A stretch of DNA of 48,515 bases from an uncultured Bacilli bacterium (GTDB lineage Bacteria > Bacillota_I > Bacilli_A > RF39 > UBA660): contig CALVIU010000002.1 in assembly GCA_944331835.1 (NCBI GenBank), forward strand, positions 1-48,515, in the 5' to 3' direction. The notes under the pieces are model-generated. The model saw only the letters and a program-made list of their open reading frames with translations, ran no database searches and was not told where the DNA came from. Of the stretch, positions 10,397 to 14,375 are shown piece after piece. The number at the start of each line of letters is the position of its first letter. Position 1 is the stretch's first letter. A program made the position numbers and the translations under genes.

Positions 10397-10744
10397 ATGA
10401 AGATAAGTGAAGTAAGTGAAAAATATAATATCCCTGCTGATACATTAAGATATTATGAAAAATTTGGTTTAATTGATAATGTTAGTAAAATATCTGGTGT
10501 TAGAAATTATAGTGAAGAAGATTGTTCCAGAATTGAATTTATTATCTGTATGAAACATGCTGGACTAAGTCTAGAAGATATTAAAACTTTTATTAATTTA
10601 AACAAAGAGGGAGATAAAACAATACCAGCAAGATTAAAGATATTAGAACATCAAAAGAAGATACTTGAGGATGAAATCAAAAACAAAGAAAAAACTCTGG
10701 ACTATTTAAATTATAAAATTAATTTATATAAAGGAATGATAATT
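10397..10744 (+). CDS. MerR-family regulator domain (AdhR/NmlR-like), running in frame into the DUF362 gene
   Basis: MKISEVSEKYNIPADTLRYYEKFGLI, GVRNY, FIICMKHAGLSL; no stop codon before ATG 10745. Confidence 0.85.
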
Positions 10745-11626
10745 ATGAAATCAAAAGTATATTTTATTAAGGAAATAACTCCTGAAAATATTATTAAAGC
10801 CTATGAAGCATTAGGTAAAAAACTAGAAGGTAAAGTTGCTGTTAAAATGCATTCTGGAGAACATGGCAACCAAAACTATTTAAGACCAGAATTTGTTCAA
10901 GATGTCATAAGACATGTCGGTGGTACAGTTGTAGAATGTAATACTGCTTATGAAGGTGCTAGAAATACAACTGAAAAGCATCGTGAATTAATTAAAGAAC
11001 ATGAATGGGAAAAATATTTTCCATTTGACTTAATGGATGCAGACGGACCAGACTTAGAATTAGATATTCCAAATGGTAAAATTTTGAAGAAAAACTATGT
11101 TGGTAAGAATTTAGCCAATTATGATTCAATGATGGTTCTATCTCACTTTAAAGGCCATGCTATGGGTGGTTATGGTGGAGCTTTAAAACAACTTTCTATT
11201 GGTTGTGCATCATCTGCTGGTAAAACACTAATTCATACTGCTGGAGTAACTGATAATCAATACGAATTATTTAATAACCTGCCAGAATAAGACCATTTCT
11301 TGGAAGCAATGGCTGATGCGGCATCAAGTGTAGTAAATCACTTTAATGGCAATATTGTATACATTAATGTTATGAAAAACATTTCTGTTGATTGCGACTG
11401 TGATGGTAATGCTTCTGCTCCATGTATGGCTGATGTGGGTATTCTTGCAAGTCTTGATCCAGTAGCAATAGATCAAGCATGCCTAGATTTAGTTTATAAT
11501 AGTACTGACCCAGGTAAAGATAAGCTTATCGAAAGAATTGAATCTCTTCACGGTGTTCACACTGTTGAAGCTGCTGCTGAACTTGGTGTAGGTTCTCGTG
11601 AATATGAACTTATAACAATCGAATAA
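10745..11626 (+). pseudogene. DUF362 family Fe-S protein interrupted by an in-frame TAA (11288-11290)
   Basis: VAVKMHSGE, VECNTAY, SHFKGH..GGYGGALK, then PE*DHFLEAMADAA continuing in frame to DCDC and DPVAIDQAC. Confidence 0.8.
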
Positions 11627-11634
11627 GTAATGTT

Positions 11635-11661
11635 AACTGTTACATTTTGTAGCAGTTTTTT
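11635..11661 (+). terminator. intrinsic terminator
   Basis: AACTGTTACA-TTT-TGTAGCAGTT followed by T-run. Confidence 0.7.
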
Positions 11662-11716
11662 ATTTTGAAGTCGCAGAACAAAAAAGTAGAAAAAACAAAA
11701 ATTTACATATCGAAAA

Positions 11717-11738
11717 CGAACAAATGTTATGGTATACT
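11717..11738 (+). promoter_or_regulatory. putative LexA (Cheo) box next to an extended -10
   Basis: CGAAC-AAAT-GTTAT versus consensus CGAAC-RNRY-GTTCG; TG-G-TATACT at 11730-11738. Confidence 0.45.
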
Positions 11739-11762
11739 GTATTTAGTTATAGGGGGTACAAT

Positions 11763-12623
11763 ATGAATAACTTAGTAAAAGATGAAATTAATATTGAAGA
11801 TTTGATTTATGAAATTCGGGGAGTATAAGTAATGCTAGACAGTGATCTAGCTAATCTTTATCAAGTGGAAACCAAAAGAATTAATGAAGCAGTTAGAAAT
11901 AATCCTGATAAATTTCCAGAACGTTTTAGTTTTATTTTGACAGATATGGAGACATCAAACTTGAGGTCGAAAATTTCGACTTCAAAAATGCATGGTGGAA
12001 GAAGATATGCTATAAGAGTTTTCACAGAACAAGGAGTAGCTATGCTTGCTACAATATTAAAATCAAAAGTAGCAACAAAAATAAGCATCAACATAATGGA
12101 TGCATTTGTTGCAATGCGAAAATTTATTTCTAATAATTTACTTGAACAAAGATATATAAATAATTTAGTGATAGAACATGATTCGCAAATTAAATTATTA
12201 CAAGATTCGTTTCAGAAATTTGAAGAGAAGAAAGAGGTTAATGAAATATATTTTGATGGTCAAATATATGATGCTTATTCCAAGATACAAGAGATATTTA
12301 AGGAAGCAAAAAGTAAGTTAGTAATAATAGATTCTTATGCTGATAATACAATATTAGATATTATTAAAAGATTAAATATAAAAGTAATTATCATAACAAA
12401 ACCAAATAACTTATTAACAAAGCAAGATATAGAAAAATATAATAAGCAGTACAATAACTTAACAGTACAATATGATAATACATTTCATGATAGATATTTT
12501 ATATTGGATGATTCCATAGTTTATCATTGTGGTGCTAGTATTAATAGAATTGGTTATAAAACATTTTCTATAACCAGAATAAATGATGATGCAGTATGCA
12601 AGTCATTAATAAATAAAATATAA
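11763..12623 (+). pseudogene. ORF6N (KilA-N-like) DNA-binding + PLD-like domain protein, copy 1; nonsense codon at codon 22, possible restart at 11832
   Basis: MNNLVKDEINIEDLIYEIRGV*VMLDSDLA; TAA 11826-11828 aligns with CAA in copy 2; FTEQGVAML; C-terminal FHDRYFILD...HCGAS. Confidence 0.8.
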
Positions 12624-13355
12624 GGGGTAAACAGTATGAATAACTTATTAAAAGATGAAGTAAATATTGAAGGGTTAATTTATGAAATTCGTGGCGTACA
12701 AGTGATGCTCGATAGCGATTTAGCCAAACTTTATGAGTGTGCTAACGGTGCGAAGACAATTAATCAAGCAGTTAAAAGACATATAAACAGATTCCCAGAA
12801 AGATTTATGTTTAGATTAACAAGAATTGAATATCATGAAATTCTAAGGTCCCAGGTTGGGACCTTAGAATTGGAACAAGGTAAATACTCAAAATATACTC
12901 CTTATGCCTTTACAGAACAAGGAGTAGCTATGCTAGCAACAGTACTTAGAACTCCAGTGGCTGAAGAAATAAGTATCAAAATTATGGATGCTTTTGTTGC
13001 TATGAGAAAATATATATCGAATAATTTGCTTGAACAAAGATATATAAATAATTTGGTACTCGAAGATCACGAAAAAATAAAACTGTTAGAAACATCATTT
13101 CAAAAAATTGAAGAAAAGAAAAAAGTAAATGAGATATATTTTGAAGGACAAATATATGATGCTTATTCCAAGATACAAGATATTTTTAAGGAAGCAAAAA
13201 GTAAGTTAGTAATAATAGATTCTTATGCTGATAATACAATATTAGATATTATTAAAAGATTAAATATAAAAGTAATTATCATAACAAAACCAAATAACTT
13301 ATTAACAAAGCAAGATATAGAAAAATATAATAAGCAGTACAATAACTTAACAGTA
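12297..13355 (+). repeat. 171-bp identical direct repeat (12297-12467 / 13185-13355) within a ~330-bp near-identical block
   Basis: Base-by-base comparison of the 3' halves of the two ORF6N genes, offset 888. Confidence 0.9.
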
Positions 13356-13526
13356 AAATATGATAATACATTTCATGATAGATATTTTATACTAGATGAT
13401 AGAGTAGTTTATCATTGTGGAGCTAGTATTAATAGAATTGGTTATAAAACATTTTCCATAACTAGAATAAATGATGATGAAATAAATCAATTGTTAATAA
13501 AAAGAACAAATTCGGTTATTAAATAA
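12636..13526 (+). CDS. ORF6N (KilA-N-like) DNA-binding + PLD-like domain protein, copy 2 (intact)
   Basis: IYEIRGVQVMLDSDLAKLY, RFPERFMFRL, PYAFTEQGVAMLATVL; C-terminal IIDSY...FHDRYFILD...HCGAS. Confidence 0.88.
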   Translation: MNNLLKDEVNIEGLIYEIRGVQVMLDSDLAKLYECANGAKTINQAVKRHINRFPERFMFRLTRIEYHEILRSQVGTLELEQGKYSKYTPYAFTEQGVAMLATVLRTPVAEEISIKIMDAFVAMRKYISNNLLEQRYINNLVLEDHEKIKLLETSFQKIEEKKKVNEIYFEGQIYDAYSKIQDIFKEAKSKLVIIDSYADNTILDIIKRLNIKVIIITKPNNLLTKQDIEKYNKQYNNLTVKYDNTFHDRYFILDDRVVYHCGASINRIGYKTFSITRINDDEINQLLIKRTNSVIK

Positions 13527-13583
13527 AAAATTGTCAATTAAAAAGAAAAATGTTAAAATATACTTAAATTAAGGAGAAATTCT

Positions 13584-14375
13584 ATGACAAAGACAAATTT
13601 TTTATCAATTTCTAAGGAACAATTACTCCAAACATTTATAAAGTTTTATGGAGCCAATGAATCTGAATATATCAAAAGTCAATTAGAAGATCCAAAAATT
13701 ATATGGTATGAAGTAGTTGATGACCCCGAAAAAATTACTGATATATGGCCTTACATTACAACAGATATACCCAAAGAAGAAGTAGAAGGTTACTTAAAAC
13801 AAAAAAATAAATATATTTTCTTGCAAAGCGCATATATAGATGATTTAGGTTTACTGGTATTGCCTAATTCTGGCAATATAAATCATATTATTCATGAAAT
13901 GAATCATAAATTAAGTTCTCATATTATACGCGAAAAGCCATATGCCGCCATAAACGGATTATCTATCGCTGTAGAAACAGTGCATGGAGGAGTAGTTACA
14001 TATAATAACAATTTAAATGAAGTAATTAATGAACTTATGACTTTGGATATTATTTCGTGGCTAAATATTATGGGTGAAAATGTATCGCCATGTTATTCGT
14101 GGCAAAGTGGAGCATTCAAATTAATACAACCTTTTTATGAACACTTTAAAGAACCATTAAAGCAATTATATATTACGGGTAATATGTTCGATTTCTTAAG
14201 AGAAGTAGGAGAACAAGAATTTCAAGATTTTACGAATTTTATAGAAAGAAAATTATTTATAATAAAAATTCATCTAAGAAATAATAAGCCAGTTACAATT
14301 AAAGAAGAAGATGTTGCAGAATCACAAAGACTTACTCAAGCAATGATTGATTATAATTTAAGAAGTCGAAAATAA
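13584..14375 (+). CDS. hypothetical protein, putative zinc metallopeptidase
   Basis: IHEMNH (HExxH) with downstream LNEVINE; own promoter TTGTCA-17-TAAAAT (13531-13559) and AAGGAG RBS. Confidence 0.6.
   Translation: MTKTNFLSISKEQLLQTFIKFYGANESEYIKSQLEDPKIIWYEVVDDPEKITDIWPYITTDIPKEEVEGYLKQKNKYIFLQSAYIDDLGLLVLPNSGNINHIIHEMNHKLSSHIIREKPYAAINGLSIAVETVHGGVVTYNNNLNEVINELMTLDIISWLNIMGENVSPCYSWQSGAFKLIQPFYEHFKEPLKQLYITGNMFDFLREVGEQEFQDFTNFIERKLFIIKIHLRNNKPVTIKEEDVAESQRLTQAMIDYNLRSRK

Follow-up and report, generated by a model that had tools for sequence, protein, structure and literature searches.

Lambda Cro and cI and the MerR-type regulators are helix-turn-helix dimers that act on dyad-symmetric operators, and sites inside the gene of their own binder are represented by the iterons of the lambda origin within gene O and by parS within parB/spo0J. 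The ORF6N domain, with which this work is concerned, is probably akin to KilA-N. BstA, which defends against phages by abortive infection, is a protein with a KilA-N-like N-terminal DNA-binding domain, and the start of its gene is overlapped by aba, a 63-bp DNA element that has direct CCCGCC repeats at its ends (Owen et al. 2021, PMC8585504). A preprint describes a RhuM-type PDC-S05 member that cut the plating of T7 and T5 about 1,000-fold (10.1101/2024.09.26.614923). Here we describe two neighboring ORF6N genes in a 48,515-nucleotide stretch of DNA from an uncultured Bacilli bacterium (contig CALVIU010000002.1; this whole stretch is called the window below), each of which carries a long, covarying DNA palindrome within its coding sequence. 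We consider it probable that the ORF6N domain has its cognate double-stranded DNA site in this palindrome, within the gene that encodes the domain itself.

Both genes lie on the + strand, copy 1 at 11763..12623 (Pfam PF10543, E 1.1e-26, 93.4 bits) and copy 2, of 296 amino acids, at 12636..13526 (E 4.3e-29, 101.1 bits), and both score above the curated cut-off of 27.8 bits for that family. Palindrome 1 spans 11961..11985 and reads TTGAGGTCGAAA-A-TTTCGACTTCAA, with 12-nt arms that are 92% complementary and a single G opposite T. Palindrome 2 spans 12839..12871 and reads AATTCTAAGGTCCCA-GGT-TGGGACCTTAGAATT, with 15-nt arms that are 100% complementary; neither element has a strand. The respective cores are GGTCGAAA-A-TTTCGACT and GGTCCCAG-G-TTGGGACC, and the encoded peptides are LRSKISTSK and ILRSQVGTLE. 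Each palindrome is centered on the first base of a codon that aligns between the genes, ATT (Ile) in copy 1 and GTT (Val) in copy 2. Counted from the center, both members of four pairs are changed from copy 1 to copy 2, namely A-T versus C-G at position 3, G-C versus C-G at position 4, G-C versus A-T at position 10, and T-A versus C-G at position 12; at position 8, copy 1 has G-T where copy 2 has G-C. The positions, arms, same-codon centering, and four compensatory pairs had all been described in a first-pass annotation of the window, and inspection of the sequence together with a repeat search bore them out. The same annotation held that protein constraint alone does not explain the symmetry, and this was confirmed with synonymous shuffles of the same 21 codons per copy, drawn 20,000 times with the codon usage of the gene itself. 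The observed stem was reached in 7 of 20,000 draws for copy 1 (11 pairs) and in 0 of 20,000 for copy 2 (15 pairs), the null mean being 4.3 to 4.8 pairs. A genome-wide hairpin scan found five hairpins of at least 11 pairs in all on the window contig (C2), and the longest is that of copy 2. Palindrome 2 is identical in contigs of runs X1 and X8. A break in a contig of run X1 at 11956-11985, at palindrome 1, was taken as an assembly-graph effect of the palindrome and not as biology, and a contig joint from 11888 to 12245, the short side of which spans 21 letters, was set aside as likely cross-paralogue.

The coding palindrome is a feature of almost the whole ORF6N family in bacteria, archaea, and phages, and not a local oddity. 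The survey drew on 242 sources in all: 80 genome loci (from species representatives, chosen as the best 80 among 598 confirmed relatives), 80 viral-contig loci, 80 metagenome loci, the window, and a paralogue on contig C21 of the same genome. By record title, the genome sample spans many bacterial phyla and several archaeal lineages. These sources gave 268 tblastn matches, 263 of them covering the site, and from these 225 distinct domain proteins. Stems were called from the pairs at the homologous place, with one mismatch allowed. On this count, 200 of the 225 domains have at least 10 pairs, 5 have 8 or 9, and 20 have fewer than 8, many of the last belonging to one viral clade having two adjacent mismatches. 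The first-pass annotation had proposed a comparison of the family with synonymously shuffled controls, and when it was run, excess symmetry was evident, along with covariation across the family. Indeed, the 83 genome-derived genes (two rows of locus L006, which contain stops, are left out) have a mean of 12.5 pairs against 4.9 in their shuffles, with p<0.01 in 74 of the 83 and p>0.05 in 7. In 56 of 85 cases the palindrome site is the longest hairpin of its 2- to 4-kb locus. A sample defined by the Pfam HMM only was drawn from the phylum of the window, where 16 of 300 scored genomes contain ORF6N; in it, 25 of 32 distinct domains have at least 10 pairs. No description of an ORF6N palindrome was found in the literature searched, a search that lay outside subscription journals and bioRxiv supplements. 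In each of three ORF6N genes (L019, L020, and L040), two segments that encode a palindrome follow one another in tandem (e.g., LRSQIVTLDNKNLKSQIVTSSS), which suggests duplication of the palindrome unit.

Alignment of 180 centered distinct cores gives a consensus near TTGAGGTC-NN-CAA-W-TTG-NN-GACCTCAA. Positions 2 to 12 are Watson-Crick paired in 1,876 of 1,980 cells, there being 88 distinct left arms, and the innermost positions are nearly fixed, with A·T at position 2 in 177 and C·G at position 3 in 165 of the 180 cores. A formal covariation count was made on 150 of 179 cores, every sixth being dropped. The arms were paired in 92.2% of cells versus 67.0% in shuffles, none of 500 shuffles reaching the observed value, and controls slid along the sequence were paired in 24 to 46%. 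Cells changed on both sides numbered 469, compared to 120.8 in the shuffles. Pairing also governs synonymous choice; for example, Ser is encoded by TCA opposite the Val codon GTG and by TCG opposite the Ala codon GCG. Among domains with at least 8 pairs, the center falls on the first codon position in 170, on the second in 34, and on the third in 1, which is a broken gene. The first-position class encodes peptides such as LRSQIATS and the second-position class peptides such as ELVANCDRF, and GGTCGCAAATTGCGACC encodes both RSQIAT and LVANCDR in the two reading frames. The protein segments that flank the palindrome align in both classes, which means that the frame shifts across the palindrome and the DNA is kept. 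Because both frames read one nucleotide core, the constraint acts on the nucleic acid and not on the peptide. In an AlphaFold2 model of copy 2, palindrome 2 encodes residues 68 to 78, the end of helix 63-73 and a loop with a pLDDT below 50, and the encoded segment thus appears, as modeled, to be a tolerant place in the protein.

A constraint on nucleic acid could act on RNA, and the first-pass annotation had listed an mRNA structure among its possibilities. Such a stem-loop within the coding region would tune translation, folding, or RNA stability. It would suit an element that lies in the transcribed coding region of nearly all members and covaries strongly on a helix model, and an RNA-library contig covers 12696-12961, which by itself is no proof of transcription. 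However, an RNA stem is expected to tolerate G·U and not A·C, and the mismatches at positions 2 to 12 comprise 41 G·T or T·G, 23 A·C or C·A, and 40 others. In the main frame class G·T is not favored over A·C (21 versus 21), which argues against an mRNA stem, and mismatches of other kinds are, over all cores, as common as G·T; the second frame class has 19 G·T versus 2 A·C, mostly one inherited T·G at position 9. The mismatch spectrum is therefore of the DNA type and not of the RNA type. Moreover, other loci have non-coding copies upstream of promoters or ribosome-binding sites and past stop codons, the core bases follow residues of a protein helix (see below), and the element occurs in archaea, bacteria, and phages, with their different RNA-processing machinery. 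A scan of 11000-14000 on both strands with the Rfam 15 covariance models gave 0 matches at E up to 1. We regard an mRNA stem as extremely improbable.

The bases of the palindrome are associated with residues that the palindrome does not encode. For all alignment columns except those that the palindrome encodes, the mutual information with each arm position was calculated, and four columns stood out, those of residues 40, 41, 44, and 48 in the numbering of copy 2. Residue 48 is tied to half-site position 3 (normalized mutual information 0.79), residue 44 to positions 4 and 5 (0.80 and 0.72), residue 41 to the same two positions (0.67 and 0.53), and residue 40 to position 7 (0.69). The dinucleotide at positions 5 and 4 is CA with Gln at residue 44 (82 of 89), CG with Glu (41 of 42), GC with Arg (12 of 19), TC with Lys (11 of 13), and TT with Leu (14 of 17). 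At position 3, Arg at residue 48 goes with C·G in 165 of 167 cases and Asn with A·T in 12 of 12; at position 7, Lys at residue 40 goes with G in 131 of 134 cases and Arg with A in 30 of 35. Several of these residue-base pairs are classical, namely Gln-A, Arg-G or Lys-G, Asn-A, and Glu-C. The four residues are spaced i, i+1, i+4, and i+8 on a predicted helix, 39-48, that comes after helix 26-32 in the model. The codons of this helix in copy 2 (A39 K40 T41 I42 N43 Q44 A45 V46 K47 R48), placed by the AlphaFold2 model together with the mutual information, lie at 12750..12779 on the + strand; in copy 1, the codons of the predicted DNA-reading helix (T14 K15 R16 .. E19 .. N23), aligned to K40, T41, Q44, and R48 of copy 2, lie at 11871..11900 on the same strand. 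The association is present in both frame classes, the palindromes of which encode different residues, and the tie is therefore to the bases and not to the encoded peptide. The HMM-defined sample repeats the code, for example with CG for Glu in 10 of 13.

Two other sources of the association were considered and rejected. Linkage through block recombination or co-inheritance is contradicted by the columns that lie between the helix and the palindrome, which carry a normalized mutual information of at most 0.2. Long-range pairing of the helix codons with the palindrome is contradicted by inspection, as the Gln, Glu, Arg, Lys, and Leu codons are not complementary to CA, CG, GC, TC, and TT. Relatedness was controlled for with disjoint nearest-neighbor pairs of domains at least 70% identical over 76 other columns. 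Of 58 such pairs with unlike helix residues, 55 have unlike dinucleotides, and of 60 pairs that share the residue, 8 do. This genome has three paralogues, which constitute three different protein-site pairs. Both rules hold for copy 1, which has Glu at the place of Q44, Asn at the place of R48, and the core TCGAAA, with CG at the dinucleotide and A·T at position 3. The paralogue on contig C21 combines Leu with TTTCAA and likewise fits the code. Copy 2 has T41, Q44, and R48 with TCCCAG and obeys the rule for R48.

We infer from these patterns that an ORF6N domain would dock on the palindrome in its own gene as a dimer. Two copies of the protein would occupy the two half-sites, with the predicted helix (residues 39-48 in copy 2) in the major groove, such that position 7 would be read by residue 40, positions 5 and 4 by residues 41 and 44, and position 3 by residue 48. 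If one of these residues changed in a lineage, both arms of the palindrome would change with it; the joint change would yield the compensatory pattern, and the altered peptide would be a by-product. The predicted fold of the N-terminal domain, modeled alone with a pLDDT of 87.7, is consistent with a winged-helix-like DNA binder. Its matches include the N-terminal domain of baculovirus Orf22 (Z 7.3), Dachshund (7.2), the DNA-binding domain of pSK1 Par on centromere DNA (5.4), Mbp1 (4.5), and MerR-type proteins (about 3.4 to 4.2). A two-chain complex prediction for copy 2 scored 0.01 against a mark of 0.42 and speaks neither for nor against a dimer. The first-pass annotation had raised a self-encoded operator evolving together with the residues specified by it, and part of this survives. 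The palindrome behaves as a putative DNA site of the protein itself and co-evolves with that protein. The co-evolving residues, however, lie on a predicted helix 25 to 30 residues upstream and not in the encoded peptide, which is read in two frames across the family and in the model forms a helix end and a low-confidence loop.

Palindromes of the family type also occur outside the ORF6N-domain matches, where we counted 67 in 55 of 240 loci. In L012, four non-coding ORF6N-type palindromes with 15- to 17-bp arms lie upstream of the gene at 990-1380, spaced by about 110 to 120 bp; their inner dinucleotides are TT, CA, CA, and TT, and the coding copy of the same locus has TC with Gln as the helix residue. 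Two further non-coding palindromes lie upstream of the L004 gene, two lie just past the stop codon in L027, and one copy in L045 overlaps a GGAGG ribosome-binding motif. Some of the 67 sit in RhuM-type frames beside ORF6N genes (L001:~2593, L003:~3080, and L074:~708). A hybrid palindrome at L049:~503, GGTCACAATTTGCGACC, has a CA core in its left half and a CG core in its right half and would suit a mixed pair of sister proteins. In the window itself, the first-pass annotation had pointed to an 11-bp copy of one arm of palindrome 1 upstream of the promoter. An exact copy, TTTTGAAGTCG, is indeed present at 11663..11673 on the + strand, between a terminator-like hairpin (11635-11657) and a promoter-like site (11710-11738) that both lie upstream of copy 1. 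It is possibly a half-site; it is not significant alone, the window having 3 matches with at most one mismatch versus 1.26 expected and 13 of 100 shuffles reaching 3, and on this count we rejected it as a regulatory half-site.

Several observations weigh against a dimer on a linear duplex as the full account of the palindrome. With respect to the protein, every fold match of the N-terminal domain is below Z 8. With respect to the code, copy 2 has CC where Gln usually pairs with CA, an exception shared with L003 and L009, and all three have T41. A tree-based test (FastTree, 77 columns) gave 1 to 4 independent pairs on supported branches, with p from 0.25 to 1 (sign test, p 0.25 for 4 pairs), which is too little power to be of use, and the control for relatedness thus rests on the nearest-neighbor pairs, which are not strictly independent. 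With respect to regulation, the window has no full promoter-proximal copy of the palindrome, the non-significant 11-mer being all that is found there, and the flank copies in other loci fit the helix code of the adjacent gene in 11 of 31 hand-listed cases, approximately the expectation from base frequencies. Flank copies that match at this rate give no support for simple promoter autoregulation and argue against it; the tight pairing is between the protein and the palindrome inside its own gene and not with the flank copies. Finally, the outer positions 8 to 13 are as symmetric as the core (163 to 175 of 180 are Watson-Crick at positions 8 to 12) and covary freely, no residue outside the palindrome predicts the outer arms (best normalized mutual information 0.33), and an upstream copy carried by a viral clade shares the inner core, with outer arms that differ yet are self-complementary. 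A plain dimer-on-duplex model leaves the self-complementary outer arms of each copy unexplained.

The outer arms would be accounted for if the selected feature were a DNA hairpin or cruciform, in which the arms pair once supercoiling extrudes them or once the DNA is single-stranded in intermediates of replication or transfer, and the ORF6N protein or a host factor recognizes the stem instead of the linear duplex. Near-perfect complementarity that reaches positions 8 to 13 and covaries without a protein predictor would be expected of such a structure, as would copies within one locus that share the inner core and have each its own self-complementary outer arms. An AT-rich center favors extrusion, and the center here is AT rich (CAA-W-TTG). 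The equal counts of G·T and A·C would suit a structure formed on both strands, and the residue-base code is compatible with it, as a stem would show the reading helix the same base pairs as the half-site does. However, the innermost positions 1 to 3 are conserved in identity and paired, where a hairpin would have them looped or frayed, and position 3 follows residue 48. Arms of 12 to 15 bp, as here, are also short for stable cruciform extrusion. On balance a cruciform as the selected feature seems unlikely. In light of the outer-arm symmetry that lacks a predictor and of the mismatch of the flank copies, pairing of arm with arm may nevertheless contribute, perhaps helped by template-switch correction.

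Template switching could also be the whole cause, with replication copying one arm onto the other and the palindrome perpetuating itself either without function or as the built-in diversifier that the first-pass annotation had suggested. Arm-to-arm correction is said, in work by Ripley and by Dutra and Lovett, to be a mutational route at short inverted repeats, and it would account both for outer-arm symmetry in the absence of a protein determinant and for the tandem duplicated palindromes in L019, L020, and L040. It leaves unexplained why base identity is kept at synonymous sites, in two frames, and across bacteria, archaea, and phages, as well as the position-specific link to four helix residues. 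The palindrome is conserved family-wide and is not hypervariable, and no arm variants appear in the contigs of two studies, which is weak evidence as contigs drop rare variants. We consider a self-perpetuating quasi-palindrome very unlikely, and the diversifier is not supported.

If the palindrome is the cognate duplex site of the domain, its purpose is most likely one of two: self-repression or limitation of the gene that contains it, or an aba-like marking or restraint of the protein on the DNA that carries it. The latter is considered because these are candidate defense proteins of the PLD-nuclease type, and aba does as much for BstA. Copy 2 matches the PADLOC PDC-S05 model PDLC04869 (E 1.8e-88) over residues 6-292 of 296. 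Its AlphaFold2 model, built from a 68-row alignment with a mean pLDDT of 89.1, predicts an N-terminal ORF6N DNA-binding domain, a long helix at 107-161, and a C-terminal PLD-like domain. In Foldseek searches, the whole chain matches TrmBL2 (E about 3e-5) and the C-terminal domain matches NucT (6ehi), Zucchini (4ggj), Nuc (1byr), and PLD3/4, with E from 4e-5 to 1e-3 and a target-normalized TM of about 0.55. A PDB sequence search with copy 2 found no chain at E up to 1. The invariant C-terminal motif is H247-D248-R249..D254..G262-x-S264, which differs from HxK(x)4D(x)6GSxN in having R249 where PLD enzymes have Lys, and a Pfam scan of copy 2 residues 119-296 found no PLD or other family. We call the domain PLD-like on account of its fold, without placing it in the PLD (HKD) superfamily.

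Copy 1 differs from copy 2 in that its full-length frame, 11763-12623, is broken by an in-frame TAA at 11826-11828, where copy 2 has CAA. The open frame runs from an ATG at 11832 to 12623 (263 amino acids) and the N terminus is thereby truncated. The TAA is seen in contigs of two runs from different studies, and despite it copy 1 retains an intact helix and palindrome, both consistent with the family code. By eye, the two copies hardly differ in the DNA of their C-terminal halves (12250-12600 versus 13140-13490), and the N-terminal halves, which contain the helix and the palindrome, have diverged. It looks as if the effector half were under gene conversion while the DNA-reading half stays diverged. 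The surrounding DNA encodes housekeeping proteins, including undecaprenyl diphosphate synthase, lactate dehydrogenase, a glycosyltransferase, a split MerR-DUF362 protein, diacylglycerol kinase, and UvrB, and because of this the ORF6N pair and one unassigned 263-aa gene look like a small inserted chromosomal island. The MerR-DUF362 gene directly upstream of the island is apparently split into frames at 10397-11290 and 11300-11626, both of which match DUF362.

Coding palindromes were also seen in other gene families of this genome. Five paralogues have one at the same protein position (FPIVDTLCPQLNWSHY / VIWQQLVAKLPWGHN), at C13:32517-32549, C13:33453-33479, C15:12524-12550, C20:6156-6184, and C43:8797-8827. 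The first of these, the one of the five that was scanned, matches DUF1016_N and YhcG_C. The arms differ among the five paralogues, and the center is mostly CAGTG. RhuM-family genes have coding palindromes of their own at C24:14291-14317, C24:12938-12968, and C53:1047-1075, the encoded peptides being RKFGISEFS, STVAKFATVQ, and ATIRKFRTVA; a Pfam Virulence_RhuM match, at E 4.4e-98, was obtained for one of these frames, that of C24:14291. In a Bro-N protein (Pfam E 1.2e-8), ETVTNCNALK is encoded across the palindrome CGTTACAAATTGTAACG. A nearly identical core, GGTTACAAATTGTAACC, is apparently non-coding and lies about 40 nt upstream of a frame that, from its peptide, may be exonuclease VII small-subunit-like; the two palindromes are those of C25:7601-7625 and C19:6422-6446. 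Five copies of a perfect palindrome with the core TGTTTCACGTGAAACA lie within about 800 bp at C8:9764-10574 and look like an operator array for some regulator. A 26-nt hairpin, GATTATTTTGAC-NN-GTCAAAATAATC, recurs at C11:36149, C13:34193, C22:22595, C47:2, C55:2, C5:30216, and C7:4, often at contig ends, and probably marks where a mobile element terminates whose repetition breaks the assembly.

A broader reading, which we consider doubtful in its full form, would join these observations and treat ORF6N defense genes as "self-addressed" modules. The in-frame site would then restrain or license a nuclease-type protein, and transfer could not separate the two. The code at residues 40/41, 44, and 48 would let duplicates drift into orthogonal pairs, as with the three paralogues here. 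The long covarying arms would have to extrude as a cruciform, by which the protein would sense supercoiling or replication state, and the non-cognate palindromes beside the genes would be decoys against sister systems. The coding palindromes of RhuM, YhcG/DUF1016, and Bro-N genes in the same genome would be independent cases of the design. ORF6N, RhuM, YhcG, and Bro-N are among the commonest unexplained passengers of defense islands, restriction-modification operons, and prophages. A site within the gene, combined with a simple residue-base code, would allow the DNA target of any family member to be predicted from its sequence. There is also a caution for annotation, in that constraint at the DNA level can shape what appears to be a variable protein segment, and covarying hairpins in coding sequence are not necessarily RNA.

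Compared with the dyad-symmetric operators of lambda Cro/cI and the MerR-type regulators, the ORF6N palindrome is alike in having two half-sites about a dyad, with the read positions (3 to 7 on each side) about one helical turn apart, and in having its specificity set by one helix face through the classical Gln-A, Arg-G, and Asn-A pairs. As in those systems, it is a symmetric site whose bases co-vary with the residues of a recognition helix, here a helix taken from a model. Unlike those operators, it lies inside the reading frame of its own binder in about nine of ten members, no full copy stands near the promoter-like site of the window, and with 12 to 16 pairs per arm it is longer and far more perfect than the read core needs. 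The placement resembles that of the lambda O/ori and parB/parS pairs, in which site and binder are likewise inseparable on transfer and the site encodes a tolerant segment. Those sites serve the replication or segregation of a replicon, whereas no replicon function is in view at the ORF6N locus, where the site is single and is conserved superfamily-wide in two reading frames. With respect to phage defense, the protective PDC-S05 member of the preprint has a RhuM domain, whereas copy 2 has ORF6N and PLD-like domains and is a candidate for a defense role. Copy 2 matches the ORF6N profile and may be akin to KilA-N-like proteins, the fold match to Mbp1/APSES being at Z 4.5 only. By analogy, BstA and aba appear to be the nearest described case. 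There, a short DNA element, and not an RNA or a peptide, lies in the locus of its own gene and is cognate for each variant, as we propose here; aba differs in its position at the gene start and its direct repeats, the ORF6N element being a mid-gene palindrome of 25 to 33 bp. The ORF6N pair is, moreover, set in a small chromosomal island amid housekeeping genes, and its function is putative. The ORF6N palindrome would thus extend the idea, introduced with BstA and aba, of a defense gene that carries its own cognate DNA element, and it offers a computational route to such elements.

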